Assembly: GCA_934276735.1 (NCBI GenBank) | Contig: CAKQTG010000001.1 | Location: forward strand, 418,203 to 482,202 | Length of the DNA stretch: 64,000 bases | From: an uncultured Alphaproteobacteria bacterium | GTDB taxonomy: Bacteria > Pseudomonadota > Alphaproteobacteria > Rs-D84 | Direction: 5' to 3' | In this document: piece after piece, positions 20,846 through 62,249 of the stretch | How the letters are laid out: every line of letters begins with the position of its first letter | Numbering within the stretch: the first letter of the stretch is position 1 | Made by a program: the position numbers and the translations under genes | Notes under the pieces: model-generated | What the model was told of the DNA's origin: nothing | Seen by the model: the letters and a program-made list of their open reading frames with translations, nothing else | Databases searched by the model: none

Positions 20846-20956
20846 CCTTGGCTTTGTGATAATGATAGCAAAAATGCCCTTTTCGGGGCAAGGGTTATTT
20901 CGCACAATCGCGCAATTTTTTTGCAAAAATAATCCCGCAGATTACGGGACTTTTTA

Positions 20957-21205: not shown

Positions 21206-21345
21206 AGTTTATCCTTAGCATTTTTCTGAATTTTTACTGGTCTAATATTATATTTTTGCATAAAAAATTGCAAGTTGTTTTTATCTGCTTGCACGGCGGG
21301 GCCGGATTTGATAAAATTAGACATAATAATGTAGGGTGGAGTCAT

Positions 21346-23514
21346 ATGAGATTAGGCTTGTTTTTCACATTGTTGTGTGTTGTGCCGGGACTGGCATATG
21401 GGGCGGCGCGTGATGATACGAACGTTCGTGTCGGGGTGACGCGTATGTCAATGGCGGGTGCGCGTGCGCCAAATATGACGGGAAATCTGGGCGGAAATAA
21501 AACCACCACGCCGACGATACCAACCACCAGCAGCAGTGGTGGCACAACAAATCCGACGCCAAATCCAACACCCACTCCCACACCAGAACCGACACCGGCC
21601 CCCGCGCCAAATCCGGGCACGTCCGACGCTGGCACTGACACATCGTGTCGCACGGCGTATCGCGCGTGTATGGATGAATTCTGCCTGTTGGACGAGAGCG
21701 AGGGTAATCGTTGCGCCTGTTCGGATAACATAAACAAATCAAAATCATTGATTCAAGAAATTCAAAAAATTCAATCAGACGCTGATAATTTATACACCGA
21801 GGGGGTAGAGCGCGAACAACTGGGGGCCAAGGCAAAACTGGTATTTGGCCAGAGTGCGGCCGCACAGAAAAGTTCGCGTGCATCGGGACTGAGTTTTACC
21901 GAGTGGTTAAACAGCGACAATAATTCGGATTCGCTGGGTGCGGACGAAGATATTGGCGATGGTCTGTATTCGATGGCGGCAACATATTGTGCCGACGCAT
22001 TGGCGAAATGTGGCAGTTCTGCCGATATGGAAGAGGCGTTATATTCTCGTCAAATTGTTGCCGATTGCAAGGCGTTTGATTCATATCTGGCCGACCAGAA
22101 ATCAAATGCCCAGGCCAACAAACGCACGGCCGAGGCCGCTGTGCGCAAGGCGCGTCTGGAAATGTTGGATACAACAAATAAATATAACCGCGGCGAATGC
22201 CTGTTGGCGTATAAATCGTGTATCGCGGACAAGGGCGGCTGTGGCGCGAACTTTGAAAACTGTTTGGATCGCGACCTGTTGGGGCGTCGTGCAAATGCGT
22301 GCGAAAATGTTCTGGACCAGTGTATGGCGGTGCGGGACAGTGTATTACAGGATTGGGATGCAGAATCCGAAAGTATTTTAGTTGATGCGGCGAAATACGC
22401 GGATAAAAATGCCCGCGCAACATGTCTGGCACGGATTCAGGTCTGTTTGGAAGATGGATGCAGCACGGCAACAAATTCGGCGTGCCTGACCGATGTCAAG
22501 GTTGCGGCCGGTGTTTGCCCGGTTATTACCGAATGCGAAGAAATGATTCCGGGTATCCAAAGTGCGGTCAATGATAAACTGGGGTATCTGCGGACGCATT
22601 TCTGCCAGAACGATATTGATAAATGCCTGCAAAGCAAGTGCGGTGAAAACTTTACTGCGCCGGAATGCGTTGGTAAAAGTGCAACGGAAATTGCCGCGCT
22701 GTGCCCCCAGGATATGTATCCGTCATGCAAAAACGAAACCCAATTTGACATAATTGTGCAATCGGTTTTGTTACAGATGGATTACCAGATGTTGCAAGGG
22801 TGCCTGAATTACTTTGGCGAACAGTTGGGCAAGGTTTGCGGCACGGATATGTCGTGCCTGCCGACGGATACGACGATTGCGTCACTGACGTCGGTGCCGG
22901 ACGATTCTGCGGCATTGGCGCAGTTGCGCGAAACCGTGCGCAGCAATGTTGCCACGTCGGTGGATGAATTCTTTACCCAGTTTGAACAGGATAAAACGGT
23001 TGCTGCCTGTGCAGACAGCCAGAAACCCGCCGGTAAAAAATCATTGGGCGACACGGTGTTCAACAGTGCGAAAATGATCGCACAAATCGGGGCGGAAAAT
23101 CGTGCGATGCGCGCATTGGAAACCAAGATTTCAGAACTGTCGCGCCAGCAAGATTTGAATGCGGCCGAAAAGAACTGTCTGAATACATACAAGGTGGAAT
23201 CGCCGGACAAATCGTCCAAGAATTACAGTTATATCCGCAGTGTATCGTTTGAACCATCGTTGCGTAATTGCCATGTGTGCCGTATGCAACAGGTCTGCGA
23301 AACGGGTGGCGAATCCAAGGGAACCGCGGGCCTGAAAGGATTGGCGGGCGGCCTGTCGGCGGGTGCGGCGGCTGGCACGATGGTGACCCCGGGGTGGGGC
23401 ACGGCAATCGGCGGTGTCGTTGGCGCGGTTGGTGGTCTGTTCGCAGGGCGCAGTGCGGGTGGCAAACAAGAATTCTGCCAGGAAATTGAATCCTGTGAAG
23501 ATATAAATATGTAA
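21346..23514 (+). CDS. Paralog B of the large secreted Cys-rich protein family (722 aa). Signal peptide, P/T-rich linker, motif CRTAYRACMDEFCLLDESEGNRCACSD, Cys-rich body, C-terminal RNCHVC box, glycine-zipper hydrophobic tail.
   Basis: Start moved to ATG 21346 (ggtggagtcatATG; MRLGLFFTLLCVVPGLAYG). Blocks YSRQIVADC, NKYNRGEC, CGANFENC and CENVLDQCMAVRDSV are shared with paralog C. Confidence 0.8.
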   Translation: MRLGLFFTLLCVVPGLAYGAARDDTNVRVGVTRMSMAGARAPNMTGNLGGNKTTTPTIPTTSSSGGTTNPTPNPTPTPTPEPTPAPAPNPGTSDAGTDTSCRTAYRACMDEFCLLDESEGNRCACSDNINKSKSLIQEIQKIQSDADNLYTEGVEREQLGAKAKLVFGQSAAAQKSSRASGLSFTEWLNSDNNSDSLGADEDIGDGLYSMAATYCADALAKCGSSADMEEALYSRQIVADCKAFDSYLADQKSNAQANKRTAEAAVRKARLEMLDTTNKYNRGECLLAYKSCIADKGGCGANFENCLDRDLLGRRANACENVLDQCMAVRDSVLQDWDAESESILVDAAKYADKNARATCLARIQVCLEDGCSTATNSACLTDVKVAAGVCPVITECEEMIPGIQSAVNDKLGYLRTHFCQNDIDKCLQSKCGENFTAPECVGKSATEIAALCPQDMYPSCKNETQFDIIVQSVLLQMDYQMLQGCLNYFGEQLGKVCGTDMSCLPTDTTIASLTSVPDDSAALAQLRETVRSNVATSVDEFFTQFEQDKTVAACADSQKPAGKKSLGDTVFNSAKMIAQIGAENRAMRALETKISELSRQQDLNAAEKNCLNTYKVESPDKSSKNYSYIRSVSFEPSLRNCHVCRMQQVCETGGESKGTAGLKGLAGGLSAGAAAGTMVTPGWGTAIGGVVGAVGGLFAGRSAGGKQEFCQEIESCEDINM

Positions 23515-23530
23515 TATTCGGGCATAAAAT

Positions 23531-25972
23531 ATGAATATAAAAAATATATTGACGTTTGTGATTTGTGGTGTTGTGGCCGTGGGCGCGGGTGACGCGTTGG
23601 CGGCGGCCAAGACATCGAAACAGGCGGCAATACAAACCGGGACAAATGTTCGGGCGCGGCTGACGGCAACAGGTCTGTATGACCAGGAATGTTATGACGC
23701 GTATTATTCGTGCATGGATCAATTCTGTATCGCGGATAATTCCAGTGGGGGCAGTTGCGCATGCAGTGACGAAAACGCAAAATATGAACAACAACTGGCC
23801 GAAATCCAAGATATGGTGGACGAGGCCGCACGTATCCGCACCGAAGAGGTTGAAAAGGTTCGCGCGGGTGCGGATGCCGATATTATATTTACGGGCGAAC
23901 GCAAATACGATGAAAACGGCAATATTATCAAGACGGGCGAATTGACCGCGGCAGAAAAAAAAGCCCAAGACCGCCAGAGTTTGATGGCGTTGTTTAACGC
24001 GACCAGCGACGATGACGAAGATGTTGTAACAGGTATCGCGGACAAGGCCGGCAACGCGCTGTATAACGCGGCCCAGGAACTGTGCACGGCCCAGATTCCG
24101 GACAAATGTTCGTCTGATTTGAATTTCTTGACCCAATTATATTCACGCCAGATTGTATCAGACTGTCGCGGTTTTGAAAACAGCATCAACGCCAAAATGG
24201 CCACCGCAAAGCAAGACTTGGTTACTGCCCAGGGCGAAGTGCGCACCGCACTGCAAGAAAGTTTTGAATCGGCCAATAAATATGATTTGGGCACATGCAT
24301 GGTGGAATTTAAAAAGTGCATGCAGACCGATGATGCCTGTGGCGCGGGTTGGGAAAATTGTGTTTCGACAATTGCATCTGAAAATATGCAAAACAATACC
24401 GCGGTCAGCACCGCCGGCACCACGGTTGCAACGGTTGATAAATATGACATAACCACGTCAACCATGGAAATCTTGAATTCCAAGCGCACCATTTGTGAAA
24501 AGGTTTTGGACCAATGCGTCGCCGTCCGCGACCAGGTTTGGCCGGCGTTCCTGCGCGAAGCGGCCCCAACGATAAAGGTTGCCGAATCCCAGGTTGAATC
24601 AAAGTTTCGTCAATCGTGCCTGGGCACAATTTCCGACTGTATCCAGACGGCGTGTCGCGACGATATCGCGGGCAAGGGCGTTGCAACAATGGACGCATGC
24701 TTGGCACGTCCCGATATGGCACGCAGTTTCTGCAAGGTTGAAATTGACCCGTGTGAACGCATGGAACCGCAAATTTGGGACTATGTAACCGATAAACTGG
24801 CGGCGATGCGTGTTGATGCCTGCACGAACGAGGTCAAAGAGTGTTTTACCGCGGATACACGTTGCGGCGCGAATTTCCAGAACTGTATCGGTATGGATTA
24901 CGATTATATTCACGATATTTGCCCGATTGACACGTTGGTTGTCTGCAAACAGAATAACAAAGACTTTTCAATGGATGATTTGGATTCTATGTTGATGGGG
25001 CTGTATCTGAATATTGATAACAGTGCGCTGACCCAGTGTGAAAACCTGGTCGACACCAAAATGGCCGAAATTTGTGGCAGCACCACCGACTGTAACAAAT
25101 TCGCCAGTGATGATACAATTGGCACCGGATCATTGCGTTCCCAGAAAGATGGCACGACGTATCGTGTGACCGGTATGATTTCGTTCGGCAGTATCAAGAT
25201 GGGCGACGCGTCTGGCAAAACGATTGACAATGGCGATGGCAAGACTGTGCGTCTGGGCCCCGGTGAAATCGGTGTTGCAGAATACCTGAACCAGATTCGC
25301 ACGCGCAATTCGTCGGTCAAAAATGCCGATGGCATCATTTCGTCAATTGAAGAAGAACTGAACAACATTGCTGGCACAATCAATCGCACAATTGAAATGA
25401 TTGAACAGGACCCGCAAATCCAATACTGTGTGAACGGGCGCGATTTGTCCCAGATTACGGGCAAGGCGAACCAGAAAACCACGGCACGTTTTCCGAACCT
25501 GTTAAACAGTGTGAAAATGCAAATCGCGGTCGCTGCACTGCGCCAGGCCCAGGATAACTATAACGCCAAACTGAATAAACAAATCGCAGACGCAACCAAA
25601 GACGCGTCCACAGATTTGGCGCAATATATGTGCCAGAAAATGGCCGAAACCGGCGGGGCGGGCACAACCGGAATTTCATCATCAACGCCGCTGGCGGCAC
25701 CATATGCAATCAGTTATGATGTGGGCTCGGGCCTCAGTAATGATGACCTGACACGTGGCGGGACGGGTGAAACATCAATTACGACCACCGCGGGCAGTGG
25801 CGTCACCAAAACCGTGACCAGTCTGTTTAACCGTGAAACACGTAATTGCCACGTCTGCACCACAACCACCACACAGAGTTGCACTATAAAGGGCGGCAAT
25901 TGGTTCCGCAAGGCGAACAAGAATTGCGACGTTAAAACCGATGGCCCGAATTGTGAAGATATCGCAATGTAA
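23531..25972 (+). CDS. Paralog C of the large secreted Cys-rich protein family (813 aa). Signal peptide, motif CYDAYYSCMDQFCIADNSSGGSCACSD, Cys-rich body, C-terminal RNCHVC box.
   Basis: 16 bp downstream of paralog B, so probably in an operon with it. Blocks YSRQIVSDC, NKYDLGTC, CGAGWENC and CEKVLDQCVAVRDQV are conserved. Confidence 0.8.
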   Translation: MNIKNILTFVICGVVAVGAGDALAAAKTSKQAAIQTGTNVRARLTATGLYDQECYDAYYSCMDQFCIADNSSGGSCACSDENAKYEQQLAEIQDMVDEAARIRTEEVEKVRAGADADIIFTGERKYDENGNIIKTGELTAAEKKAQDRQSLMALFNATSDDDEDVVTGIADKAGNALYNAAQELCTAQIPDKCSSDLNFLTQLYSRQIVSDCRGFENSINAKMATAKQDLVTAQGEVRTALQESFESANKYDLGTCMVEFKKCMQTDDACGAGWENCVSTIASENMQNNTAVSTAGTTVATVDKYDITTSTMEILNSKRTICEKVLDQCVAVRDQVWPAFLREAAPTIKVAESQVESKFRQSCLGTISDCIQTACRDDIAGKGVATMDACLARPDMARSFCKVEIDPCERMEPQIWDYVTDKLAAMRVDACTNEVKECFTADTRCGANFQNCIGMDYDYIHDICPIDTLVVCKQNNKDFSMDDLDSMLMGLYLNIDNSALTQCENLVDTKMAEICGSTTDCNKFASDDTIGTGSLRSQKDGTTYRVTGMISFGSIKMGDASGKTIDNGDGKTVRLGPGEIGVAEYLNQIRTRNSSVKNADGIISSIEEELNNIAGTINRTIEMIEQDPQIQYCVNGRDLSQITGKANQKTTARFPNLLNSVKMQIAVAALRQAQDNYNAKLNKQIADATKDASTDLAQYMCQKMAETGGAGTTGISSSTPLAAPYAISYDVGSGLSNDDLTRGGTGETSITTTAGSGVTKTVTSLFNRETRNCHVCTTTTTQSCTIKGGNWFRKANKNCDVKTDGPNCEDIAM

Positions 25973-27619: not shown

Positions 27620-27744
27620 CCGAAAATAAACCACCGTTTGGTTTTGACGTAAATTCGCGCTTGGTGATTGGTAAAAAATGTGCTAAAATTAAACCATTGT
27701 ATATAAGTGAGAAATGCCGAACCCAAACGGTGGTTTATTTTCGG
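27620..27744. promoter_or_regulatory. Perfect 22-bp inverted repeat (27620-27641 / 27723-27744) bracketing an 81-bp segment with promoter-like elements (TTGGTG …17 bp… TGcTAAAAT) upstream of the 27760 CDS
   Basis: ccgaaaataaaccaccgtttgg is an exact reverse complement of ccaaacggtggtttattttcgg. An extended -10 TGnTAAAAT lies between the arms. Confidence 0.5.
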
Positions 27745-27759
27745 CGCGGGGGATATATT

Positions 27760-29823
27760 ATGAAAAAAATCTGGTTTCTATCAATGTGTTGTGCGTGTAT
27801 GTTGGTCGGAATTTCTAATTCATATGGTGATTGTGGCGGAGATCAGTGCCAGTATAAGTTGTCTGATGGAACAACAGATTGCGCTAACATCGGCGAGGTC
27901 AGGCCCTTTAAGTGTAGACTCGGTAGCGGCGGCGTATATAGTCTAGATCATGTAAAAGTTGGAGACGGCGAGAATCATTGCGATGCAAAATGCAAGTCTG
28001 GAGTGTTTTCTAATTGGTGGTATTATACATTGCAGTCTGACGCATGCGAAGATGGGTGGAAGGTTGACTTCGATAAAAAAATCTGTGTCGCTGCTGATAA
28101 CCAAAAATGTAAATACACCGATGGGACGTTTGCTCAAACAGGTGTTGTTCGGAATAAGGGCAACTGTATTTTTGCTAGTCTAGAACATATAAAAAATGGT
28201 GGCAAGGGCCAGTGCAAGAACACGTGTAAGTCTGACGGTTGGTATTCGGAATTACACAATGACGCATGTGAAGATGGGTGGCTGGTTTCTGCTGATAAAA
28301 AAAGCTGTTGGCCGAAATGTAAAGAAAACCAGTGTGTACAGTCGGTTGATGGTAAAAAATCCTGTGTTGACAGCGGCAAGAGTGTTTACGAGAACTGCAA
28401 AACAGGGGATGGGGGCATAGATAGCCTGGAGCATGTAAAAGGTGGCAGTGGCTGGTGCACGGTCATGTGTGTATCAGGAAAGTGGGGACAACGAGAGTTG
28501 CGCCCCAATGCATGCGAATCTGGTTATGTGGTTGCCGCCAATAAAAAAAGCTGTGTTGCGGCCGAGAAAAAAAGCGATGTTGACGTGCCAGCGTCTGACC
28601 AGGGTGCGTCGAAACAGAAACCTGGTGCCTGTAAAGAAAACCAGTGTATATCTTCCCTTGATGGTAGCTGTATTGACAGCGGCACGAGTTTTAACGATAA
28701 CTGCAACACTGGGGAAGGAGGCATAGATAGCCTGGAACATGTAAAAGATGGTGGCTCGATTCAGTGCACGGTCACATGTGTATCAGGAAAGTGGGGACAA
28801 CGAGAGTTGCGCCCCGATGCATGCGAATCTGGTTATGTGGTTGCCGCCGATAAAAAAAGCTGTGTTGCCGACGATAAAAAGGGTGATGCTGGTGCTGATG
28901 CCTCGTGCGAGCTGGGGAAAGCATGTAAGCCATCCAGCCATGGCGCAAAGGGTGATGGAATATGTATCAAATATCAGGGTGACACGGTTAGTTGTGCGGC
29001 AACGGCGTGCGATACAGACAATGGATATCACCTGGTAAAGCAAAATGGTCAATCCATGGGATGGTGCCAAAAGTGCAAAAAGGACGAGCAGGTAAATGCC
29101 ACCGGCGATGGTTGCGTGTCGAAAAGTGCGAATGGCAATTGCCCCTATGAAGACGGGACGTCTGCCCAAACAGGTGACGTTGTGAACGATACGAACTGTG
29201 TTTCAGTTAATCTGGATCATGTAACAATGGGGGGTAAAGACCGGTGCAAGTCCACGTGTAAGTCTAATGGTTGGGATTATGAATTACACGTTTACGCATG
29301 TGAATCTGGTTATGTGGTTGCCGACGATAAAAAGAGCTGTGTAGAGAAAACCACCGTCGCAGCCGAGAAAGATATCAATCCGACAGAAACTTTGACGGAC
29401 AGCAAACAGGTCACCTGTGGTAAAATTATTGGTGCCCAGTGGATTGATGGCGAGTGCAGATGCACAACTGCCGGGTGGGTTATGAATGCGACTGGAACCC
29501 AGTGCGTCAAGGGCGAGGCACTGATAAAGGCCGAGCGGTTGTCGGCGTCCCGGACGAATATAAGCCGCCTGTATAAAAAACTGGACAGCATGTCAAATGA
29601 CTTTAAGGTGTCGGTATGGCGTGACAAACAGGGGAATTTTAACACATCGCGTCTGGCGTCTGATTCAATTGCGGCGGTGGTGTTGGGGACGACGGGGGCG
29701 TTGGTAACCAGCAGCGTTGTAAAAAAGAATCAGGTATCCAGTGGGTTTGAAGGTATTAGTTGCCAGATAGGCGGCCAGACCGTTGCCGGCTGGGGTGACG
29801 AGTTCAGTGTTGGAATGCAATAA
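27760..29823 (+). CDS. Secreted Cys-rich tandem-repeat protein (687 aa; about 60 Cys). It is built from ~100-aa repeats carrying C-x-S-G-[KW]… and C-E-[SD]-G-[WY]-[VL]-V-[AS]-A-[DN]-KK-S-C units, with a C-terminal hydrophobic anchor.
   Basis: Start moved to ATG 27760 (MKKIWFLSMCCACMLVGISNSYG). Repeats such as CVSGKWGQRELRPNACESGYVVAANKKSCVAA and CVSGKWGQRELRPDACESGYVVAADKKSCVAD differ by two residues. Confidence 0.8.
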   Translation: MKKIWFLSMCCACMLVGISNSYGDCGGDQCQYKLSDGTTDCANIGEVRPFKCRLGSGGVYSLDHVKVGDGENHCDAKCKSGVFSNWWYYTLQSDACEDGWKVDFDKKICVAADNQKCKYTDGTFAQTGVVRNKGNCIFASLEHIKNGGKGQCKNTCKSDGWYSELHNDACEDGWLVSADKKSCWPKCKENQCVQSVDGKKSCVDSGKSVYENCKTGDGGIDSLEHVKGGSGWCTVMCVSGKWGQRELRPNACESGYVVAANKKSCVAAEKKSDVDVPASDQGASKQKPGACKENQCISSLDGSCIDSGTSFNDNCNTGEGGIDSLEHVKDGGSIQCTVTCVSGKWGQRELRPDACESGYVVAADKKSCVADDKKGDAGADASCELGKACKPSSHGAKGDGICIKYQGDTVSCAATACDTDNGYHLVKQNGQSMGWCQKCKKDEQVNATGDGCVSKSANGNCPYEDGTSAQTGDVVNDTNCVSVNLDHVTMGGKDRCKSTCKSNGWDYELHVYACESGYVVADDKKSCVEKTTVAAEKDINPTETLTDSKQVTCGKIIGAQWIDGECRCTTAGWVMNATGTQCVKGEALIKAERLSASRTNISRLYKKLDSMSNDFKVSVWRDKQGNFNTSRLASDSIAAVVLGTTGALVTSSVVKKNQVSSGFEGISCQIGGQTVAGWGDEFSVGMQ
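28318..28929. repeat. Intragenic tandem DNA repeat, unit ~306 bp. Two near-identical copies (about 28318-28623 and 28624-28929) are flanked by more degenerate copies.
   Basis: For example 28461-28560 and 28767-28866 are ~97% identical; 28318-28475 matches 28625-28780. Confidence 0.8.
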
Positions 29824-37922: not shown

Positions 37923-38423
37923 ATGTTCGGCTTTGGCAAAAAGAAACAAGAAACAGTTAAAACAGACAACGCCACACTTAGCGAGAAAGAATTAAAACAG
38001 ATGGAAGAAAAAATGCCATCTGGGATGAAGGAAACTGCCCAACGTATGATGTCAGGTCAGTTTGACATGAACGACATGTTGGCCCAGTTAAAACAGATTA
38101 AAAAGATGAGCAATTTCAGTGGGCTGTTAAAAATGGTGCCGGGTATGTCGGGTGCGGTTGCCGCGATGAAGGAAAAAATTAAAGATGGCAGTGTTGAAGC
38201 CCAGATAAAGATACTGGAGGCGATGACCCCCGCCGAACGTGCGGAACCAGATAAAGTGTTTGCCAATGCCAAGGCTCGCATTGCCGAAACCGCGGGCTGC
38301 ACGGTGCGTGATGTTGAACATATTATCAAACAATATAACAAAATGCGCCAACAGATGGCGATGGTGCAACGCATGGGCGGAATGGAAGCCATTATGGAAC
38401 GCATGAAAAAACAAGGTAACTAA
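37923..38423 (+). CDS. Stand-alone SRP54/Ffh M-domain protein (166 aa). There is no NG GTPase domain.
   Basis: FDMNDMLAQLKQIKKMSNFSGLLKMVPGMSG … AMTPAERAEPDKVFANAKARIAETAGCTVRDVEHIIKQYNKMRQQMAMVQRMGG aligns with the E. coli Ffh M-domain (FDLNDFLEQLRQMKNMGGMASLMGKLPGMG … [48 protein letters not shown]). Strong RBS aaggagtgaaaaATG. It is 28 bp after the uvrA stop, so no upstream NG domain is possible. Confidence 0.7.
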   Translation: MFGFGKKKQETVKTDNATLSEKELKQMEEKMPSGMKETAQRMMSGQFDMNDMLAQLKQIKKMSNFSGLLKMVPGMSGAVAAMKEKIKDGSVEAQIKILEAMTPAERAEPDKVFANAKARIAETAGCTVRDVEHIIKQYNKMRQQMAMVQRMGGMEAIMERMKKQGN

Positions 38424-38774: not shown

Positions 38775-39434
38775 ATGAAAATACTGAATAAAAAAATTGC
38801 AGCACATAAATCATCGGTCGCGTGGTTGCAACGCCAGGCAGCGGATCCATATGTTGCGCGTGCCCATCGTGATGGCTATCGTGCGCGGGCAGCGTATAAA
38901 TTGATTGAAATGGACGAAAAATTTCATTTCTTGAAAAATGGTCAGATTGTTGTTGACTTGGGGGCGGCACCGGGCTCGTGGACACAATACGTGGTGCGTC
39001 AGTATCCGCGTTCGCGTGTGTTTGCAATGGATTTACTGGAAATAGCACCGATTCCAGGTGTTGAATTTTATCAGGGCGATTTTACAACCGATGCTGCGCT
39101 GGGGTGGCTGGTGGACAAGTTGAATTTGCCAGATGATGCAGTGGGTCACGGCACGGTTGACGTTGTATTATCTGATATGGCACCGAACACTGTGGGGCAT
39201 AAAAAGACCGACCATTTGCGCCAGATGGTGTTGCTGGAATACGCATTTGATTTTGCGTTGCGTGCATTAAAACCGGGTGGGACATTTGTCGCCAAATCGT
39301 TCACTGGTGGCACAACCGGCGAATTGATAAAACAGATAAAGGCTAAATTTGATACGGTGCATCATATAAAACCGCCTGCCTCGCGCAAGGACAGCGTTGA
39401 AATGTTTGTCGTTGCGATGGGATATCGTGGATAA
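38775..39434 (+). CDS. rlmE: 23S rRNA (uridine2552-2'-O)-methyltransferase RlmE/FtsJ
   Basis: …DPYVARAHRDGYRARAAYKLIEMDEKFHFLKNGQIVVDLGAAPGSWTQYVV… shows the SAM-binding motif and catalytic K-D-K-E context. Start moved to ATG 38775 (MKILNKK). Confidence 0.85.
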   Translation: MKILNKKIAAHKSSVAWLQRQAADPYVARAHRDGYRARAAYKLIEMDEKFHFLKNGQIVVDLGAAPGSWTQYVVRQYPRSRVFAMDLLEIAPIPGVEFYQGDFTTDAALGWLVDKLNLPDDAVGHGTVDVVLSDMAPNTVGHKKTDHLRQMVLLEYAFDFALRALKPGGTFVAKSFTGGTTGELIKQIKAKFDTVHHIKPPASRKDSVEMFVVAMGYRG

Positions 39435-39436
39435 AA

Positions 39437-39462
39437 ATGCCCCGCCGGGGCATTTTTTATTA
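39437..39462 (+). terminator. Rho-independent terminator (aaaatgccccgccggggcatttttt)
   Basis: Hairpin plus T-run after rlmE. Confidence 0.7.
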
Positions 39463-40200
39463 GAGAGCATCCGTCTCCGCTGCGCTCCGTCGCGATAAAG
39501 AGAGCAGAGAGCAATGAAGCGCGCCGATGGCGGACACTCCTTATTTGTCATTCCCGCGTAGGCGGGAATAGGGACTATACAGTGCGAGCGAACGCGAGCC
39601 ATGTCCGAGCAATTGCGGATTTTATTATTGGTGACTAATCACTCAATTGTGACGTGCCAAGGGAACACAATGGATACCGGCCAGGCACCACCCACGAAAT
39701 TTATCAATTTCGCGGGGCCCGGACGGCCGGTATGACGGTGGTGTGTGGTTTGGGTGCTAATTTTTACGTATATTGTGCAACAATGAGCAAAAGTAATTTC
39801 TTAGTCCCTATTCCTGCCTTTGCCCACCCACAAAATCTTGCGATTTTGCGGGACCCGGAGCAGGAATGACAATAAGCACGCACTGTGTGTGACATTATTA
39901 CCTGGATCCTGGGGTCAAGCCCCAGGATGACAAGAGTAAAAATGTGCTAAGTTCCCCTCCGGTGGAGGGGTGGCACGCAGTGCCGGGGTGGTCTTGAGAG
40001 CCCGTAATGTTGAACAAGTGTAAAATACAAAAGACCACCTCCCCGCTGCGCGGGACTCCTCCATGGAACCACCCACAAAATTTGACAATTTCGCGGGGCC
40101 CGGAGGAGGAGAACTTAGTCCGCGACGGAAACGAAACAAAGTTCCCCTCTGGCCAGAGGGGAACTTTAATTTTATCACTCTATCACTTACTCACTAAAAA
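39463..40200. repeat. Mosaic intergenic repeat array (~740 bp) between rlmE and the dsbA-like gene, using modules M1-M6
   Basis: agagagcatccgtctccgctgcgctccgtcgcgataaagagagcagagagcaatgaagcgcgcc is identical to 45209-45275. Other module copies: cattcctgcgcaggcaggaatagggactatacagtgcgagcg, ggataccggccaggcacc, ccacccacgaaatttatcaatttcgcggggcccgg, ttgtgcaacaatgagcaaaagtaatttcttagtccctattcctgcc, cctggatcctggggtcaagccccaggatgacaagagtaaaaa, gttcccctccggtggagggg, gttcccctctggccagaggggaac. Confidence 0.85.
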
Positions 40201-41825: not shown

Positions 41826-41852
41826 TAAAAAAACGCCCCGTGGGGCGTTTTT
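41826..41852 (-). terminator. Terminator (aaaaaacgccccgtggggcgttttt) after the MotB-like gene
   Basis: Hairpin plus T-run. Confidence 0.65.
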
Positions 41853-41854
41853 AT

Positions 41855-42967
41855 TTAACGGTTGGTCAACTGTAACTCAATACGACGATTCTTTTGCAGG
41901 CTGGCCGCGTCGTTGCCCAGTTCAACCGGATGCATATCGCCGAATCCGCTGGGGACCAAGCGGCGTTTTGACACGCCGTCGTTCGCCAATTCGTTTGCCA
42001 CCGCCGTCGCACGCAACAGTGATAATTCTGTATTGTTTTTGTATCCGCGTGTGCCGGGAACAACAGGCTTTTTATCCGTGTGGCCATCAACGCGAATAAT
42101 CCAATTTACATCAGACGGAATTTTGTTTTCCAAATCCTTTATCACGTTCGCAATCAGGCGCAGTTGATTTTTCCCTTCAGGCGACAGGGTGTATGAACCG
42201 CTGCTGAATAAAATGTCGCTGGACACGATAAAGCGGTCGCCGTCCGGTTGCACTGTTGTGCGGTCGCCCAGGGCGTCCTTTATCGCGCGGTAAAATGCCG
42301 ATTGATATTGTGAAACTTTGTTCAATTCGGCGACTTTGTCCGCCAAGGCCTTGTTCAAGCGTGCCGACATTTCAACATACTGGATTTCCTGGGCGTGCGA
42401 CTTTTCTTCGGCTGCATCCAGTGCCGATTGCAGTTTTGCCAACTGGTCCGACAATTCTGCACGTTGGGCGTCCATCTGGGTTTGTAATTCGCGCCGCTGT
42501 TGTTCTAATTCGGCGGTTTTTGCCTTGTCCAATTTGGCCTGGCTTAATTGCTGGGACAATTCGGCAACGCGCGCCGATAAATCGGTGCCCTGGGATTGCA
42601 ATTGGGCGACCTTGGCCTCGTAATCGGCAATCAGTTCGTTCATACTGGTATCAACCGCTGCCAATTCAGATGTCAATTTCGTGTTGTTTGATTCCAGGTT
42701 TTCCAATTGCGCACGCGCCAATACCAACAGACGCTTGGCCTCTTGCTCGTCCGCGGTCATTTGTTGGATTTGTTGCGCCTGATCGGCGTTCGCCTGTTTC
42801 AAGTCGGCAACTGTTTTGGCACCGGTCTTGGTGTTAAATACACTGGTTGTGGTCCACAGGAATACAAACACAATCAGCAAAAATATCAATATGATAACCA
42901 GGTTCGAAAACAGATCAACGAACCCCGGCCATGTATTTGTTCTGTCGCGAAAACGAATATTTAGCAT
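41855..42967 (-). CDS. MotB-like stator B subunit. N-terminal TM helix with conserved Asp, a ~190-aa Q/A/E/L-rich coiled coil, and a C-terminal OmpA-type peptidoglycan-binding domain.
   Basis: Start moved to ATG 42967 (MLNIRFRDRTNTWPGFVDLFSNLVIILIFLL; RBS gagaggaaaag). The C-terminus carries the OmpA/MotB motif (…NWIIRVDGHTDKKPV…NTELSLLRATAVANEL…). The long coiled coil is atypical for MotB. Confidence 0.7.
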   Translation of the reverse strand: MLNIRFRDRTNTWPGFVDLFSNLVIILIFLLIVFVFLWTTTSVFNTKTGAKTVADLKQANADQAQQIQQMTADEQEAKRLLVLARAQLENLESNNTKLTSELAAVDTSMNELIADYEAKVAQLQSQGTDLSARVAELSQQLSQAKLDKAKTAELEQQRRELQTQMDAQRAELSDQLAKLQSALDAAEEKSHAQEIQYVEMSARLNKALADKVAELNKVSQYQSAFYRAIKDALGDRTTVQPDGDRFIVSSDILFSSGSYTLSPEGKNQLRLIANVIKDLENKIPSDVNWIIRVDGHTDKKPVVPGTRGYKNNTELSLLRATAVANELANDGVSKRRLVPSGFGDMHPVELGNDAASLQKNRRIELQLTNR

Positions 42968-43001
42968 GATTTCTTTTCCTCTCTCTCGGTATGTCCTGGG
43001 C

Positions 43002-43706
43002 TTATTTATTGTCCAATTCACAATCCGGGGCGTTTGCCACATGGGTGTGTGCCGCCAGATAATCTTCCAGTTCACGGAATATCGCATTCTGGGCCAATTG
43101 CACTTGGAGTCCCAAGAACCCGACAATCAAACTGCCCCCCAGGCCCATCATCGAACTGGTAAAGGCGGTTGCCATACCAGCCAACGGTTTTGCCAGACCC
43201 GTCTGCATTGCGGTCAAAACCGCATCGTCGGCAAAATTCAGTCCGCCAATCAAATTGGCAAAACCACCAACGGTCATAATCAGACCCCAAAATGTTCCCA
43301 ACAATCCTAAAAATACCAATGTATTACCAATATATCGGATAGATTCACGGGCATCTTCGAAACGCAACTGTATTAAATCCAGCATGTCGTGCAGTGACGA
43401 TGCCGAAATCCGCGTCGGTCGCGACCGCAACAACAATGCCACCGGTCGCAATAACATCGGGGGCAGGGCACCTGTGCGCCGACCCATTAAATACCCGCGC
43501 AACCAGCGATATTCGGGCAGCAATCTGAACATATGGACAAATGTCAGTCCAATTCCAAACAGCGCGGTGCCAATAATTACACCGTTCAGATATATATTTG
43601 CGACCGCAATCTGCATAAACCGGTCATAGAACAAAATCAGTCCCACTGCCAATAACGCGGTCATCAATGCCATACGATTCAATGTTCTGTGAAACTGGTT
43701 TGTCAT
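43002..43706 (-). CDS. MotA/TolQ/ExbB-family proton-channel A subunit (234 aa, TolQ/ExbB-sized)
   Basis: Three or four TM helices with the conserved C-terminal TM segment (…GLAKPLAGMATAFTSSMMGLGGSLIVGFLGLQ…). It lies 35 bp upstream of the MotB-like gene on the same strand. Confidence 0.7.
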   Translation of the reverse strand: MTNQFHRTLNRMALMTALLAVGLILFYDRFMQIAVANIYLNGVIIGTALFGIGLTFVHMFRLLPEYRWLRGYLMGRRTGALPPMLLRPVALLLRSRPTRISASSLHDMLDLIQLRFEDARESIRYIGNTLVFLGLLGTFWGLIMTVGGFANLIGGLNFADDAVLTAMQTGLAKPLAGMATAFTSSMMGLGGSLIVGFLGLQVQLAQNAIFRELEDYLAAHTHVANAPDCELDNK

Positions 43707-43884
43707 ATAATCTCTCTTGCTATTCAGACCAATGATAGTAAATTTTATAAAATCGTGTCAATAGGGATTATTCATATAAAAACGAGTGGAAAAATTACTT
43801 GATTTTATTAAAAAAATCGGCATAATTGGCGATGTCCTGCTGGCACATGGGGTGTCGGCTGATTAAACCATAGGAAAAATATAA

Positions 43885-44605: not shown

Positions 44606-45181
44606 ATGAAAATTATTTTGACAGAAAAAATCGCACACTTGGGCAATATCGGTGATACAGTCGAAGTGAAAACAGGTTTCGCACGCAACTATTTGTTGCC
44701 AAATGGCAAGGCTATGCGCTGCACACGTGAAAACGTCGCGTTGTTCGAGGCGAAAAAGGCCGAACTGACTGCACGTCAAGAAGCCGCCAAGGCCGCAGCC
44801 CAGGCAAATGTTGACGCTGTCAAGAACGCAAAACTGCACATGATTCGCCAGGCGGGGGATACCGGTCAGTTGTATGGTTCGGTTTCGACACGTGATATCG
44901 CGCGTATGTTGAAAGAAATTGCGAACGTCAACGTTGAATCCGCCCAGGTCTTGTTGGGCAGCCCGATTAAATCCATCGGTGCGTTCGACACCAAGATTGC
45001 ATTGCACCCAGACGTTATTGTTCCGGTCAAGGTATACGTTGCCCAGACCCAGGACGAAATTGAGGCATTGATTGCGGGCAAGGTTCTGACATTTGGAACA
45101 AAAAAGGTTGAAGAAGAAGTTGCCGAAGAAAAACCGGCAGCGGAACCAAAAGCCGAAGAAAAAGCAGCAGACGCTGAATAA
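44606..45181 (+). CDS. rplI: 50S ribosomal protein L9 with an acidic/Lys-rich C-terminal tail
   Basis: MKIILTEKIAHLGNIGDTVEVKTGFARNYLLPNGKA…; canonical L9 N- and C-domains. Confidence 0.9.
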   Translation: MKIILTEKIAHLGNIGDTVEVKTGFARNYLLPNGKAMRCTRENVALFEAKKAELTARQEAAKAAAQANVDAVKNAKLHMIRQAGDTGQLYGSVSTRDIARMLKEIANVNVESAQVLLGSPIKSIGAFDTKIALHPDVIVPVKVYVAQTQDEIEALIAGKVLTFGTKKVEEEVAEEKPAAEPKAEEKAADAE

Positions 45182-45208
45182 AAAAATGCCCCACCGGGGC
45201 ATTTTTTT
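45182..45208 (+). terminator. Rho-independent terminator (aaaaaatgccccaccggggcattttttt)
   Basis: Hairpin plus T-run after rplI. Confidence 0.7.
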
Positions 45209-45345
45209 TAGAGAGCATCCGTCTCCGCTGCGCTCCGTCGCGATAAAGAGAGCAGAGAGCAATGAAGCGCGCCATCGGCGCGCTTGTTTTTATCGTCGCG
45301 GACTAAGTTCCCCTCTGGCCAGAGGGGTGGCGCAACGCGCCAATG
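45209..45345. repeat. Mosaic repeat array (M1 + palindrome gttcccctctggccagaggggtgg + terminator-like cgcgccaatggcgcg) between rplI and pgk
   Basis: The first 67 bp are identical to 39463-39529. The M1 module plus the CCCCTCTGGCCAGAGGGG palindrome are seen at four or more loci. Confidence 0.85.
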
Positions 45346-49358: not shown

Positions 49359-49526
49359 ATTGGTGTAAAGAATAGCAATCTATTTTGCACCCTGCAAGTA
49401 ATATTTGCATCGGCAAAAAATCGTGTTTTTGGAAAAATCAAGCCCTTTATTTAAAAAACATTGCTTGCGCCCGTCTTTTTCCGGGGGGCGATTTGTGATA
49501 AAATAGTATCCAGGGAAAACGGAGAG

Positions 49527-50627
49527 ATGGAAAAATATCTGAATCAGATTTTGTCTGGTGATTGTATCGAGGTTATGCGTGGCATACCAGATGCGTCGGT
49601 TGATGCTGTCTTTGCCGATTGTCCGTATAATTTGCAATTGGGGGCGAAAACACTATATCGACCCGAAGATCAAACCGCCGCACGCGCTGTGCGTGACGCA
49701 TGGGATACGTTTGACAGCCCAGCGGCATATGATGAATTTACGCGTGCCTGGATGCGTGAGTGTCAGCGTATATTAAAACCAGATGGTGCTATGTGGGTCA
49801 TCGGCAGTTATCATAATATCTTTCGCGTTGGCGCAATTTTACAGGATTTGGGTTTCTGGATTTTAAATGACATTGTATGGGTCAAGACAAATCCAATGCC
49901 GAATTTCCGTGGCACGCGTTTTACAAACGCGCACGAAACACTGATTTGGGCAACCCCGCGCAAGACCGGTAAATACACATTTAATTACGAAACGATGAAA
50001 AAACTGAACGGCGGAAAACAAATGCGTTCAGATTGGAATATCAATATTTGCCTGGGCGAAGAACGCGTCAAAGACACCAATGGCAAAAGTTTGCACAATA
50101 CGCAAAAACCGATGGATTTATTACGCCGTGTGATACTGGCGTCAACCAAACAGGGCGATGTCATACTTGATCCATTTTTGGGCAGTGGAACAACCGCCGC
50201 CGCGGCCAAAGAATTGGGACGTAATTTTATTGGGATAGAGCGCGAGCAAGCCTATGTGGACGCTGCACGGGAACGTGTTGCCGCGGTAAAACCGGTTGAT
50301 TTGTCGGATATAGAGGTTGCAATTCCGAAACGGGCCGAGGTACGTGTTGCATTTCGTGAATTGCTGGAAGCGGGATTATTGTATGTCGGGCAGACATTGG
50401 TCAGTCCGCGTGGCGAACGCGTTATGATTACACGCGATGCACAGTTGGCACATACCCTGCACGGCAAGGCGTCAATTCACGTTATGGCGGCGCGACTGCA
50501 ACACAGTGTTAGTTTCAATGGTTGGGATTATTGGTCGGCAGAAAAGCGTGATGGGACGCTGGTCCCGATTGACGAGTTGCGCAAATACGTGCGTGATATC
50601 AAACGTGATATTAAACAAGCCGCCTGA
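49527..50627 (+). CDS. ccrM: Cell-cycle-regulated DNA adenine (GANTC) methyltransferase CcrM-like
   Basis: N6-MTase motifs (DCPY catalytic-motif variant in AVFADCPYNLQ; SAM-binding DPFLGSGTT), plus the characteristic ~80-aa C-terminal extension. Start moved to ATG 49527 (RBS aacggagag). Confidence 0.8.
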   Translation: MEKYLNQILSGDCIEVMRGIPDASVDAVFADCPYNLQLGAKTLYRPEDQTAARAVRDAWDTFDSPAAYDEFTRAWMRECQRILKPDGAMWVIGSYHNIFRVGAILQDLGFWILNDIVWVKTNPMPNFRGTRFTNAHETLIWATPRKTGKYTFNYETMKKLNGGKQMRSDWNINICLGEERVKDTNGKSLHNTQKPMDLLRRVILASTKQGDVILDPFLGSGTTAAAAKELGRNFIGIEREQAYVDAARERVAAVKPVDLSDIEVAIPKRAEVRVAFRELLEAGLLYVGQTLVSPRGERVMITRDAQLAHTLHGKASIHVMAARLQHSVSFNGWDYWSAEKRDGTLVPIDELRKYVRDIKRDIKQAA

Positions 50628-60234: not shown

Positions 60235-62058
60235 TTACTTTGACTTTGTTTTTGTCTTTTTCGCTGCCTTGAACTGAATATCGCGCAGTTTTTTGTATTC
60301 CCCGCCCAGCGCACACAGTTCGGAATCTGTTCCTTGTTCGACGATATGACCGTCCTTGATCACACATATTATATCAGCATCCAAGATTGTTGACAAGCGG
60401 TGTGCGATAACAAATGTTGTGCGCCCCACCATCAGGCTTTTTAATGCCGATTGAATCAATTTCTCACTCTGGGTGTCCAGGGCGGACGTCGCCTCGTCCA
60501 GTAACAGAATAGGCGCGTCTTTTAAAATTGCGCGTGCGATAGCAATACGCTGTTTCTGGCCGCCAGATAATAACGCGCCCCCTTCGCCAACGGTGGATTT
60601 GTATTTCTTGGGGAATTTCATGATGAAATCATGCGCATTTGCCGCCCGAGCCGCCGCGATAACCTGGTCAGGGGTGGCGTCAGGACTGCCGTATTTGATG
60701 TTATCTTCAATTGTGCCATTGAACAAAAACACATCTTGGGATACTTCCGCAATATTCTGACGCAGTGATTTCAGTGTGTATTTCTTGATGTCGGTGCGGT
60801 TGATTTCAACCTTGCCCGATTGCGGGTCATAGAAACGTTCCAGCAAATTAAACATCGTGGTTTTCCCGCCGCCCGATGGCCCGACCAGCGCGCAAACACG
60901 ACCCGCCGGCACGTGCAAGTGTATATCGCGCAATACCGGTTCGTCCGGATTATACGCAAATGTGACATGATGGAAATCAACTGACATCTTTTTATCAGAT
61001 TTCAATTCGCGCGCGTTTGGGGCGTCTTGAATTTCTGGCTTGCTGTCCAGGAAATCGAACAAAACCTCGGCCGCCAGCAGGCCATGCTGAACCGTGTTTC
61101 CAGTGCCGGTAATGCTTTTTGCAGGTTTGTATGCGGCCGTCAATGCCAACAAGAACGCCGTAAAGTCACCGGTTGAAATCGCGCCCGTCACAATAAAGTG
61201 CCCACCGATAATTAACGCCAGGCACAGCCCGATTGAAATCATCAATTCCAGCAATGGTGATTGCAAGGCGTGGGCCTGGGTGCTTTTATATGAATTGCAC
61301 ATTGATGTGTCCAGCACGTGGCGAAAACGTTTGGTTTCAGATTCTTCGGTTGCAAACGCTTGAATTGTTTTGATTCCATGCAGAGTTTGATTCAAATGCT
61401 GTGATACGTTGTTCGCGATACCAAACGACTCGCGCGATAGACGCCGACGCTTGCGCATAATTAGCACCATTGGCACCATAATCGCTGGCACCAAGAATAT
61501 CAATACCGCGCACATCTGAGGCGCGTAATACACCATCAAACCCAATGTCATCATCAGGGTTGCAACCTGTTGAATCGTGCTGACGATTGTGCCAGTGACC
61601 AAGGTCAACACCGCGCCGGCCTGGACACTGAAATAGTTCAAATTCTTGCCGATACCGTCGCCATAGAATTTTGAAATATTCATTTTGACCATGTGATTAT
61701 AAATGCGCTGTTGTAAATTCGCACTGGCCAACAGTCCAGCCTTGGCCATCAGCAGGGCCTTGGAATAATTAAAAGCGCCCTTGAATCCGAACGCAGCAAT
61801 GATTTGCAAGCCGAATATATATATAGATTGCATACTGCGTTCAATAAATGCCTTGTCCACGATGCGTTGAACCAGGGTAATAGTATATGCCTCGGCTGCG
61901 GATGCGCCGATTGTCGCGATGATGCCCGCCAACAGCCATTTCCATTGTGGTTTGCCGATTTCGCGCCAAACGCGCCCATATAGTGACCATTTAATACGGA
62001 CATTGGACGCATCGCCCTTGACCAAAGTTTTTACTTTTTCAGATATTTTATTTAACAT
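60235..62058 (-). CDS. ABC transporter ATP-binding/permease protein (MsbA-like exporter)
   Basis: Six-TM permease domain, then an ABC NBD (Walker A GPSGGGKTT, signature LSGGQKQR, Walker B ILLLDEATSALD). Start moved to ATG 62058 (MLNKISEK). The track start at 62181 would overlap tRNA-Ala. Confidence 0.85.
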   Translation of the reverse strand: MLNKISEKVKTLVKGDASNVRIKWSLYGRVWREIGKPQWKWLLAGIIATIGASAAEAYTITLVQRIVDKAFIERSMQSIYIFGLQIIAAFGFKGAFNYSKALLMAKAGLLASANLQQRIYNHMVKMNISKFYGDGIGKNLNYFSVQAGAVLTLVTGTIVSTIQQVATLMMTLGLMVYYAPQMCAVLIFLVPAIMVPMVLIMRKRRRLSRESFGIANNVSQHLNQTLHGIKTIQAFATEESETKRFRHVLDTSMCNSYKSTQAHALQSPLLELMISIGLCLALIIGGHFIVTGAISTGDFTAFLLALTAAYKPAKSITGTGNTVQHGLLAAEVLFDFLDSKPEIQDAPNARELKSDKKMSVDFHHVTFAYNPDEPVLRDIHLHVPAGRVCALVGPSGGGKTTMFNLLERFYDPQSGKVEINRTDIKKYTLKSLRQNIAEVSQDVFLFNGTIEDNIKYGSPDATPDQVIAAARAANAHDFIMKFPKKYKSTVGEGGALLSGGQKQRIAIARAILKDAPILLLDEATSALDTQSEKLIQSALKSLMVGRTTFVIAHRLSTILDADIICVIKDGHIVEQGTDSELCALGGEYKKLRDIQFKAAKKTKTKSK

Positions 62059-62173
62059 AGCGGCACTATTATAAAGTGATATATAAAAACTGTCCAGTGA
62101 AAGATTTACATTGACAACGCATACAAAAGCGTATAAAATGCGTGAGCTTTCAGAGATGAAAGGGCAAAGTTTT

Positions 62174-62249
62174 GGGGTCATAGCTCAGTTGGTAGAGCAC
62201 CTGCTTTGCAAGCAGGGGGTCGTCAGTTCGAGTCTGATTGGCTCCACCA
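62174..62249 (+). tRNA. tRNA-Ala (anticodon TGC)
   Basis: GGGGTCATAGCTCAGTTGGTAGAGCACCTGCTTTGCAAGCAGGGGGTCGTCAGTTCGAGTCTGATTGGCTCCACCA. G3-U70 identity pair. Anticodon loop TTTGCAA. Confidence 0.9.

Follow-up and report, generated by a model that had tools for sequence, protein, structure and literature searches.

A large alphaproteobacterial family of MotAB/TolQR-like gene pairs with a long periplasmic coiled coil: candidate wall-anchored motors of the cell envelope

Ion-driven motors of the 5:2 type are understood through four worked examples: MotAB, ExbBD/TolQR, GldLM and ZorAB. In this report we describe a pair of adjacent genes, called A and B in the following, from an uncultured alphaproteobacterium of the lineage Rs-D84. 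The pair lies in a stretch of 64,000 nucleotides (nt), referred to as the window (contig CAKQTG010000001.1, positions 418,203 to 482,202 of the forward strand). We consider it likely that the two proteins represent a non-flagellar family of motors of the 5:2 type that are anchored to the cell wall. Our second proposal, that this motor functions in the maintenance of the envelope, is tentative. The combined reading, according to which A and B form a non-flagellar, peptidoglycan-tethered, ion-driven A5B2 motor that serves the cell envelope and defines a distinct, Alphaproteobacteria-centred family, is the one to which we lean. The features of the pair, with lengths in amino acids (aa), are as follows.

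41855-43706, minus strand: A-B operon, bicistronic, with promoter-like site, gene A, gene B and terminator-like hairpin
43732..43761, minus strand: promoter-like site, TTGACA-18 nt-TATCAT, 11/12 matches, ending 25 nt 5' of the A start codon
43002..43706, minus strand: gene A, 234-aa channel subunit of the MotA/ExbB/TolQ/ZorA superfamily, tail-less variant
43281..43310, minus strand: codons of the family-invariant motif L133-G-L-L-G-T138-F-W-G-L142 in the third hydrophobic segment of A
42968..43001, minus strand: A-B spacer of 34 nt, with the Shine-Dalgarno-like GAGAGAGAGGAAAAG 5' of the B ATG
41855..42967, minus strand: gene B, 370-aa MotB-like subunit, PRK09039 "peptidoglycan-binding protein" family
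42854..42931, minus strand: transmembrane (TM) helix of B, aa 13-38, opening with W-P-G-F-V-D18 (Asp codon 42914-42916), assigned by hydropathy and motif
42269..42811, minus strand: predicted periplasmic coiled coil of B, aa 53-233, 181 residues, about 27 nm if one continuous helix
41861..42235, minus strand: OmpA/MotB-type peptidoglycan-binding domain of B, aa 245-369 (Pfam OmpA, E=5e-16)
41829..41852, minus strand: intrinsic-terminator-like hairpin, 10-bp stem with 5 G-C pairs and a T-run, starting 3 nt past the B stop codon

Subunit A has the fold of TolQ, ExbB and ZorA

An initial annotation, made from the DNA alone, had described A as a protein with the size and topology of TolQ and ExbB. 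The size of 234 aa and the fold bear this out. Structure prediction was carried out for A and B as monomers only. The AlphaFold model of A, built from a 50-sequence alignment, is confident and all-helical, with a predicted local distance difference test score (pLDDT) of 86.5 and a predicted template-modelling score (pTM) of 0.82. The best PDB matches of this model found by Foldseek are TolQ (9kpz, 9ddm), ExbB (5sv1) and ZorA, all with a probability of about 1.0 and TM scores of 0.44-0.57 (0.55 for ZorA 8vvn_D), and structures of the flagellar proteins MotA and PomA follow at rank 47 or lower. Judged by this model, A adopts the TolQ/ExbB/ZorA fold and not that of flagellar MotA.

The sequence profiles point in a similar direction. 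The best profile matches of A are ZorA models (PADLOC ZorA1, E=1.3e-11; NCBIfam ZorA_4 and ZorA_2), and no NCBIfam MotA model matches at E<=1. The NCBIfam scores are weak (22.6 bits against a cut-off of 500 for ZorA_4, 19.3 against 100 for ZorA_2) and the PADLOC matches are partial, covering the last two TM helices of A only. The initial annotation had restricted the likeness to the anti-phage system Zorya to the MotAB-like pairing itself. This was too narrow: ZorA models are the best profiles of A, and relatives of A carry a ZorA-like short tail.

The topology of A departs from that of TolQ and ExbB in one respect, in that hydropathy shows four hydrophobic segments (around aa 9-30, 33-60, 128-147 and 186-202) rather than three. 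Positive charge is found at the N-terminus and in the loop of 65 residues that joins segments 2 and 3; this loop has 12 Lys/Arg. From these four segments and the charge distribution we predict an N-in topology with four TM helices, which corresponds to a TolQ-like core with an extra N-terminal helix and a very small cytoplasmic domain.

The pore helices of A carry polar and Gly-rich positions that do not vary within the family. The motif LGLLGTFWGL, which contains T138, is invariant among relatives of A at 31-65% identity. A second invariant pattern, P174...G177 M...F182 S185...G188 L...S192 L, falls in and before the last helix, and 27 columns in total are invariant among 17 sequences in this identity range. 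In ZorA, TolQ and ExbB, Thr/Ser residues contact the aspartate of the B subunit (PMC11946911). We take the invariant motif positions of A to be these same Thr/Ser sites, with single residues presumably equivalent. T138 in particular may correspond to Thr147, the Thr in the ion path of ZorA, and to that of TolQ, as judged from the range of the PADLOC alignment together with the published description of ZorA (PMC11946911).

Subunit B combines an aspartate helix, a coiled coil and a wall-binding domain

B contains a single, very hydrophobic segment (residues 12-46) that carries W13-P-G-F-V-D18. The pattern W-[PAILVMTSG]-x-[FYW]-x-D fits 69 of 73 B homologs, taken from the 80 loci described below, and the Asp is conserved. 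The N-terminal TM helix with a conserved Asp that had been proposed for this protein is thus present. Also in agreement with the initial annotation, B does not resemble TolR or ExbD: a Pfam search with B gave no match to ExbD/TolR (PF02472) and none to MotB_plug.

The next part of the protein had been described as an uninterrupted coiled coil of about 190 aa, and the 181 residues from 53 to 233 show the expected heptad signatures. They are predicted to be helical with a short break at 145-147 in the predicted structure, they include no Pro and one Gly, their hydrophobic periodicity is 3.53 residues, and indels among close homologs measure exactly 7 residues. Since helix prediction, absence of Pro, periodicity and 7-residue indels all agree, the sequence indicates that residues 53-233 form a genuine heptad coiled coil.

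The C-terminal domain matches Pfam OmpA as listed above and superposes on MotB of H. pylori with a root-mean-square deviation of 2.4-2.6 A (Foldseek). Many OmpA, MotB and Pal entries of the PDB match it as well, so that its assignment as an OmpA-type domain stands. The conserved wall-binding motifs are D-G-H-T-D (294-298) and N312-x-x-L-S-x-x-R319-A. Finally, B aligns end to end with NCBIfam NF006543 (PRK09039.1-2; positions 14-350 of 350, 249 bits, E=8.7e-74). Because 249 bits is below the equivalog cut-off of 305, we place B by sequence in a divergent branch of PRK09039, with membership at the superfamily level.

The pair belongs to a large family with constant gene order

The initial annotation had called the pair an orphan. 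This description does not hold. An exhaustive HMMER scan with A returned at least 1,735 representatives at 50% identity, 185 of them below 1e-30, and a profile search identified more than 7,000 family proteins among 8,000 candidates scored. The public names of these proteins, if any, are "flagellar motor protein MotA", "hypothetical protein" or "ExbB/TolQ", and usually no Pfam domain is assigned. When one genome per GTDB species was scanned with the LGLLGTFWGL motif as the search pattern, at least 600 stretches matched, 599 of which were confirmed as loci; apart from S. meliloti, the details of loci given here rest on the best 80 of these. The 80 loci stem mostly from Alphaproteobacteria (Rhodospirillales, Hyphomicrobiales, Kordiimonas, Acetobacteraceae, SAR116, Rhodobacterales, Sphingomonadales and Caulobacterales), with a few from Xanthomonadales-type Gammaproteobacteria and from other metagenome-assembled genomes (MAGs).

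A homolog of B lies directly 3' of A on the same strand in every one of the 80 loci with enough sequence, usually after a gap of a few nucleotides, and the order A then B is also found in Sinorhizobium meliloti and in the window. In the B homologs, TM helix and OmpA domain are 170 to 687 residues apart (median 198), and the long versions are coiled coil throughout. The sequences therefore identify a long periplasmic coil as a defining, never-lost feature of the family, the length of which is not fixed. In summary, the family is large and vertically inherited, it shows strict A-B adjacency, and its B subunit is catalogued as NCBIfam PRK09039.

A literature search on PRK09039 and the A-B family, with most subscription-journal papers outside its scope, found no functional study; the name PRK09039 appears in the papers found in incidental CDD matches only. 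The pair in the window is a tail-less member of this catalogued yet uncharacterised family.

The tail of A is present in most relatives and absent in the window

Homologs of A are mostly 330-430 aa long, compared to 234 aa in the window. Most of them have about 150 extra C-terminal residues, which are helical, contain a conserved VPAYVQALLEQTA... and end with ELRxEIKLLARTIA. This tail is presumably cytoplasmic. The A proteins of the Enterousia-like clade comprise 234-273 aa and have no tail; the A protein in the window is the shortest and ends 34 residues past its last TM helix. What all family members retain is the membrane core together with the aspartate helix, the coil and the domain that binds the wall. 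Since the organism of the window has lost the tail, the conserved core function should lie in the membrane or the periplasm, and in most members the tail, at about 150 aa, is probably a second output, on the cytoplasmic side, or a regulator.

In two MAGs related to the organism of the window, from horse faeces and rumen, the A protein (P0122; L006:5986-7173 and L007:5998-7146) has a different C-terminal domain of about 150 aa in place of the helical tail. By eye this domain is non-coiled and possibly alpha/beta. A Pfam scan of the variant C-terminal domains of A in relatives, P0122 and others, found no domain.

Gene calls and operon structure

Both reading frames are real genes on the minus strand, and the 234 aa first given for A are correct. 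This exact protein recurs on 84 independent contigs, several contigs carry the exact 370-aa B, and all cluster members listed have 234 aa (A) and 370 aa (B). As no other frame continues A and the identical product recurs on 84 contigs, a frameshift or truncation of A was rejected. Also rejected was a TTG-started open reading frame (ORF) of 423 aa for B, an over-extension in view of more than 100 homologs at 75-99% identity that start with MLNIRF and are 369-370 aa long; translation of B starts at the ATG behind GAGAGAGAGGAAAAG, 34 nt past the A stop codon. The uniform lengths and starts of the homologs also eliminate the concern that the coil could be an artefact of a frameshift.

With a promoter-like site 5' of A and a hairpin after the B stop codon, the sequence of the A-B pair looks like that of a self-contained bicistronic operon, divergent from rpsF and separate from recO. 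The hairpin forms the boundary between this operon and recO. An Rfam scan of the window returned four tRNAs only and no match near the operon.

Genomic context and host lineage

The neighbours of the pair in the window are uvrA, an ORF with the M domain of Ffh, rlmE, a DsbA-like protein and recO on one side, and rpsF-rpsR-rplI, pgk, rnhB, a lytic transglycosylase and nrdR on the other. The flanking genes recO and rpsF had been identified correctly in the initial annotation, but with inverted orientation: read along the operon, rpsF lies upstream, transcribed divergently, and recO lies downstream. The absence of flagellar, Tol-Pal or TonB genes around the pair is confirmed, as a Pfam scan of the major ORFs across the window found no flagellar, Tol-Pal or TonB domain. 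TolA, TonB, TolB and Pal domains are also absent among the recurrent neighbours in the 80 loci.

In other alphaproteobacteria among these loci the recurrent neighbours are a Sel1-repeat protein, efp, suhB, thiE, rpmE, pgk, fba and an ABC exporter. Comparison of relatives, which had been suggested as a check, therefore reveals recurrent housekeeping genes and a constant A-B adjacency. In S. meliloti (L081, CP090106.1 3084024-3089326) the order is thiE, sel1, suhB, A, B, ABC, rpmE, with A annotated as "MotA/TolQ/ExbB proton channel family protein" and B as "peptidoglycan-binding protein". The Sel1-repeat gene lies upstream of A-B on the same strand in 46 of the 80 loci, and 17 of the 80 contain a further ORF with an OmpA-like C-terminus, as judged by eye. 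The products of these two genes, both absent from the window, may be functional partners.

Homologs were found in 5 of 72,556 plasmid records. All five records are chromosome-sized (3.5-4.6 Mb) and typed as non-mobilizable. In view of this scarcity on plasmids and of the synteny, we rejected an origin in a mobile element or defence island; the pattern is that of a vertically inherited housekeeping module.

The nearest named genomes belong to Candidatus Enterousia and allied MAGs from gut and rumen. According to a 2025 study of the order Rs-D84, genomes of this group measure 0.75-1.0 Mb and lack flagellar machinery, TCA (tricarboxylic acid) cycle and respiratory chain, while F0F1 ATPase and an ion-pumping pyrophosphatase are present in some genomes only (PMC12306168). 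Contigs that encode the exact A protein reach 908 kb, in keeping with genomes of this size. The pair is thus retained under strong genome reduction. Since the lineage is reported to lack flagella (PMC12306168), the pair is almost certainly not the stator of some flagellum whose genes lie elsewhere, and at the level of the lineage no flagellar regulon is reported for Rs-D84 and Enterousia that would turn it into one. Fold, profile scores and lineage all agree with the earlier view of a non-flagellar, stator-like module.

Proposed mechanism

How may this pair work? We surmise that the helices of two B subunits insert into a pentamer of A to form an A5B2 complex, and that protons would flow through the A/B interface, by homology with MotAB, TolQR, ExbBD and ZorAB. 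Protonation and deprotonation of Asp18, powered by the proton-motive force, would drive rotation of A5 and B2 relative to each other. On the periplasmic side the B dimer would form a parallel two-stranded coiled coil with distal, dimerised OmpA domains that hold the cell wall. A single protein, B, would then do the work of three: its proton-binding helix would resemble that of TolR/MotB, its long helical stretch in the periplasm would be a spacer like TolA, and its wall anchor would be similar to Pal. With this equipment the pair could play a Tol-Pal-like housekeeping role, in which membrane energy would be coupled to the link that joins inner membrane and wall, in the service of an intact envelope or of its remodelling. 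The three-part construction of B and the core-gene behaviour of the pair are the reasons why we favour such a role in envelope maintenance.

The distance between inner membrane and wall in E. coli is about 9 nm (PMC11946911). Because the coil is about three times as long and varies four-fold in length within the family, we picture it as a tether that is long and compliant, or else as folded or tilted, rather than as a fixed-length ruler. The "long rigid spacer" proposed in the initial annotation is doubtful for the same reason, as a range of 170-687 residues is unlike that of a ruler.

Several points weigh against this mechanism. The 5:2 stoichiometry, the rotation, the ion specificity and the wall binding are all inferred by homology. 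The Pfam MotA_ExbB match to A scores 19.9 bits, below the gathering threshold of 22.9, and the A-family profile found no significant sequence match to the channel region in the PDB; it retrieved only spurious helical proteins (apolipoprotein, stathmin) that match the tail and not the channel core. Going by its sequence, B is of the MotB type by motif alone, with an N-terminus that matches neither MotB_plug nor ExbD. The monomer model of B is of low confidence (pLDDT 60), and the helix break at 145-147 could represent a hairpin; the model is compatible with both a straight coil and a hairpin. A coil of 27 nm, about three times the distance of about 9 nm in E. coli (PMC11946911), complicates the geometry of any tether, as does the four-fold variation in coil length (170-687 residues). 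Since the lineage has no respiratory chain (PMC12306168), a proton gradient would have to come from reversal of the ATP synthase or from the ion-pumping pyrophosphatase. Finally, a conserved third gene that would hint at a particular substrate is missing.

Alternative explanations

Among the alternatives, two would assign the pair to a known system. An atypical flagellar stator, that is, a MotAB of this organism that drives a flagellum encoded elsewhere, would account for the MotB logic of B (transmembrane Asp plus OmpA-type domain), for the superposition of its C-terminal domain on H. pylori MotB, for its weak matches to the MotB, MotD and MotS models of NCBIfam and for the frequent public annotation of the A family as "flagellar motor protein MotA". 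These matches score 36-69 bits against cut-offs of 250-300, however, and TolQ, ExbB and ZorA rank ahead of MotA and PomA in the fold matches of A, for which NCBIfam has no MotA match at E<=1. The cytoplasmic loop of A, about 65 aa, has no room for the large cytoplasmic torque-generating domain of MotA (PMC12505986), and where MotB has a short, stiff linker, that of B is quite the reverse, compliant and 170-690 aa long. In S. meliloti the pair lies between suhB and rpmE, away from the flagellar genes, and separate flagellar loci coexist. Given that Rs-D84 and Enterousia genomes are reported to lack flagellar machinery (PMC12306168), we practically discard this explanation. As a second possibility, the pair could be a ZorAB in minimal or degenerate form, which would sense damage to the envelope and pass a signal to effectors elsewhere. 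ZorA models are the best profile matches of A, ZorA (8vvn) is among its best structural matches, ZorB3 is a top match for the C-terminus of B, and most A subunits of the family have a helical cytoplasmic tail; but the scores are far under the family cut-offs (22.6 bits against 500 for ZorA_4), and the tail, which is essential for Zorya signalling, is missing in the organism of the window. ZorB has no linker (PMC11946911), while every B protein here has at least 170 aa. Neither in the window nor in the 80 loci is a ZorC/D/E/F/G-like gene adjoining the pair, the neighbours are housekeeping genes, and the distribution is syntenic and vertical across the class instead of patchy, and essentially without plasmids. 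An anti-phage function is therefore very improbable.

The two remaining alternatives are concerned with what the periplasmic part does. If B were an inner-membrane-anchored, wall-binding strut or scaffold, and A a chaperone or gate, the pair could act as a passive structural tether without rotary energy transduction. That the membrane-embedded Asp of B is invariant over very large evolutionary distances, and that the Thr/Ser/Gly/Pro motifs of the A pore are invariant as well (27 columns, 17 sequences), is hard to explain without ion coupling, and strict A-B adjacency argues for an obligate complex of the MotAB/TolQR kind. We thus judge a passive tether to be unlikely, even though coil and OmpA domain are invariant parts, A in the window has no cytoplasmic output domain, the lineage has no respiratory chain, and the sequence similarity of A to proven motors is weak. 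The other alternative is a periplasm-spanning drive shaft, similar to TonB/TolA or GldM, which acts at the outer membrane or division site: B2 turns inside A5, the coil delivers torque or tension across the wall, and the OmpA domain engages transiently. GldM and PorM provide a precedent, since in these proteins a B-type helix is fused directly to a long periplasmic transducer. The TPH-vWA proteins offer another example of B-type helices fused to long periplasmic transducers (PMC12204202). The fold of A is closest to TolQ/ExbB, and a straight coil of 27 nm would span about the whole periplasm instead of just the roughly 9 nm to the wall. On the other hand, a fixed span cannot be reconciled with coils of 170-687 residues (25-100 nm). 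The tip of B is a canonical OmpA fold for wall binding, its motif intact, and not a domain that binds outer-membrane proteins, and no conserved gene for an outer-membrane partner adjoins the pair. We consider this drive shaft to be about as unlikely as the passive tether.

A further, speculative and rather improbable idea makes the coil itself the working part. As the proton-driven A ring turned against a B dimer fixed to the wall, the two-stranded coil would be twisted, and over- or under-winding would alter its length. The motor would then serve as a torsional "winch", or as a tension sensor, by which the gap that separates inner membrane and wall is set or reported. Such a device would be a further functional class of 5:2 motor, the fourth or fifth beside flagellar, Tol/Ton, gliding/type 9 secretion (T9SS) and Zorya motors, and a near-universal housekeeping machine of Alphaproteobacteria. 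Its retention in genomes of about 0.9 Mb that encode neither flagella nor respiration would then mark the pair as near-indispensable for the maintenance of the diderm envelope in this class.

Implications

The pair stands for a family of great size: thousands of sequences from hundreds of species. Its synteny with core genes across Alphaproteobacteria and its survival in reduced genomes suggest that the pair likely matters for basic envelope biology. The genes should not be annotated as flagellar. Clear orthologs are present in tractable organisms, for example Sinorhizobium, where the S. meliloti pair has the locus tags LZK74_31000/30995.

Other features of the window

Directly after uvrA, at 37923-38423 (plus strand), lies the free-standing ORF of 166 aa mentioned above, which matches only the M domain of Ffh/SRP54 (TIGR00959 positions 300-427, 86.6 bits against a cut-off of 473). 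This may reflect an ffh gene that is split or truncated, or else a protein that consists of the M domain alone. A direct repeat of 100 nt, 87% identical, occurs at 39433-39532 (after rlmE) and at 45181-45280 (after rplI). Its first part is a terminator-like hairpin (AAAAATGCCCCGCCGGGGCATTTTTT), and about 70 conserved nt come after it. Because of this repeat, the peptide MARFIALCSLYRDGAQRRRML... appears twice in the mechanical ORF list. A separate family of 40-nt repeats is located at 39684, 39820 and 40065. Neither repeat has an Rfam match.

At E<=1e-8, Pfam matches none of five large ORFs of 720-1210 aa, which fit the "hypothetical membrane-bound proteins" of this reduced-genome lineage (PMC12306168):

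1548-5180, plus strand: large ORF without Pfam match
18290-20926, minus strand: large ORF without Pfam match
21256-23514, plus strand: large ORF without Pfam match
23531-25972, plus strand: large ORF without Pfam match
27661-29823, plus strand: large ORF without Pfam match

An autotransporter with Chlamydia PMP repeats (14279-17449, plus strand) and a protein of the choloylglycine (bile-salt) hydrolase family (11319-12458, plus strand) fit a gut-associated lifestyle. An N6/N4 DNA methylase is encoded at 49461-50627 (plus strand). The tRNA gene at 62174-62246 (plus strand) overlaps the start of an ABC-transporter ORF (60235-62181, minus strand) by a few bases, which suggests that the true start of this ORF is probably further downstream.

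Comparison with known systems

By sequence profile, the closest relative of A is the ZorA-ZorB pair of the anti-phage 5:2 motor Zorya (types I-III), and the partner protein is similar too, with a transmembrane Asp and a wall-binding domain of the OmpA type. In Zorya, the wall-binding domain of ZorB is fused to the membrane helix without a linker, and ZorA combines 3 TM helices with a tail of about 500 aa (70 nm) (PMC11946911). In the pair described here the coiled coil is part of B, A has a predicted fourth, N-terminal TM helix, and the tail of A measures about 150 aa in relatives and is absent in the organism of the window. The architecture thus mirrors that of Zorya, with the long coiled coil on the periplasmic, wall-binding subunit and not on the cytoplasmic side. 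ZorC/D/E/F/G partners are missing, and the context is housekeeping and syntenic.

The likeness to Tol-Pal lies in the TolQ size of A, its top fold matches to TolQ and ExbB, the housekeeping nature of both systems, and the composition of B from a TolR-like Asp helix, a spacer like domain II of TolA and a Pal-like OmpA domain. In effect, the logic of Tol-Pal (proton helix, long spacer, wall anchor) appears compressed into one polypeptide. In contrast to Tol-Pal, B does not contain the periplasmic fold of ExbD/TolR, no TolA, TolB, Pal or CpoB gene is nearby, the wall anchor is part of the inner-membrane subunit and not of an outer-membrane lipoprotein, and A has an extra N-terminal hydrophobic helix.

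With MotA-MotB and PomA-PomB the pair shares the order of elements in B (short cytoplasmic N-terminus, Asp TM helix, linker, OmpA-like domain) and, in A, four predicted TM helices with the N-terminus inside. Unlike MotA, A has no large torque-generating domain; unlike MotB, B has no MotB_plug and includes a coiled-coil linker of 170-690 aa, and the host lineage has no flagella.

In GldL-GldM and PorL-PorM, the motor of gliding and type 9 secretion, the B-type subunit has a long periplasmic extension on the helix inside the A pentamer. A 2025 study of periplasmic force transducers described the TPH-vWA proteins, in which B-type helices are fused directly to long periplasmic proteins (PMC12204202); these transducers are the nearest published concept to the A-B pair. 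No sequence relationship was detected between the pair and GldLM/PorLM or TPH-vWA. The extensions of these systems end in domains that act on the outer membrane, whereas B ends in a wall-binding OmpA domain, and its extension is a simple heptad coil of the two-stranded type, unlike theirs.

The models of PRK09039 (NF006542-NF006546) describe the same architecture of TM helix, coil and OmpA domain as found in B, which scores below the equivalog cut-off; the family name itself carries no functional knowledge. A 2025 survey of MotAB relatives distinguished flagellar "FIT" from generic "GIT" complexes. In these terms, the family stands outside the general rule drawn in that survey, as a GIT-type A subunit is paired here with an OmpA-type B subunit that has an exceptionally long linker.

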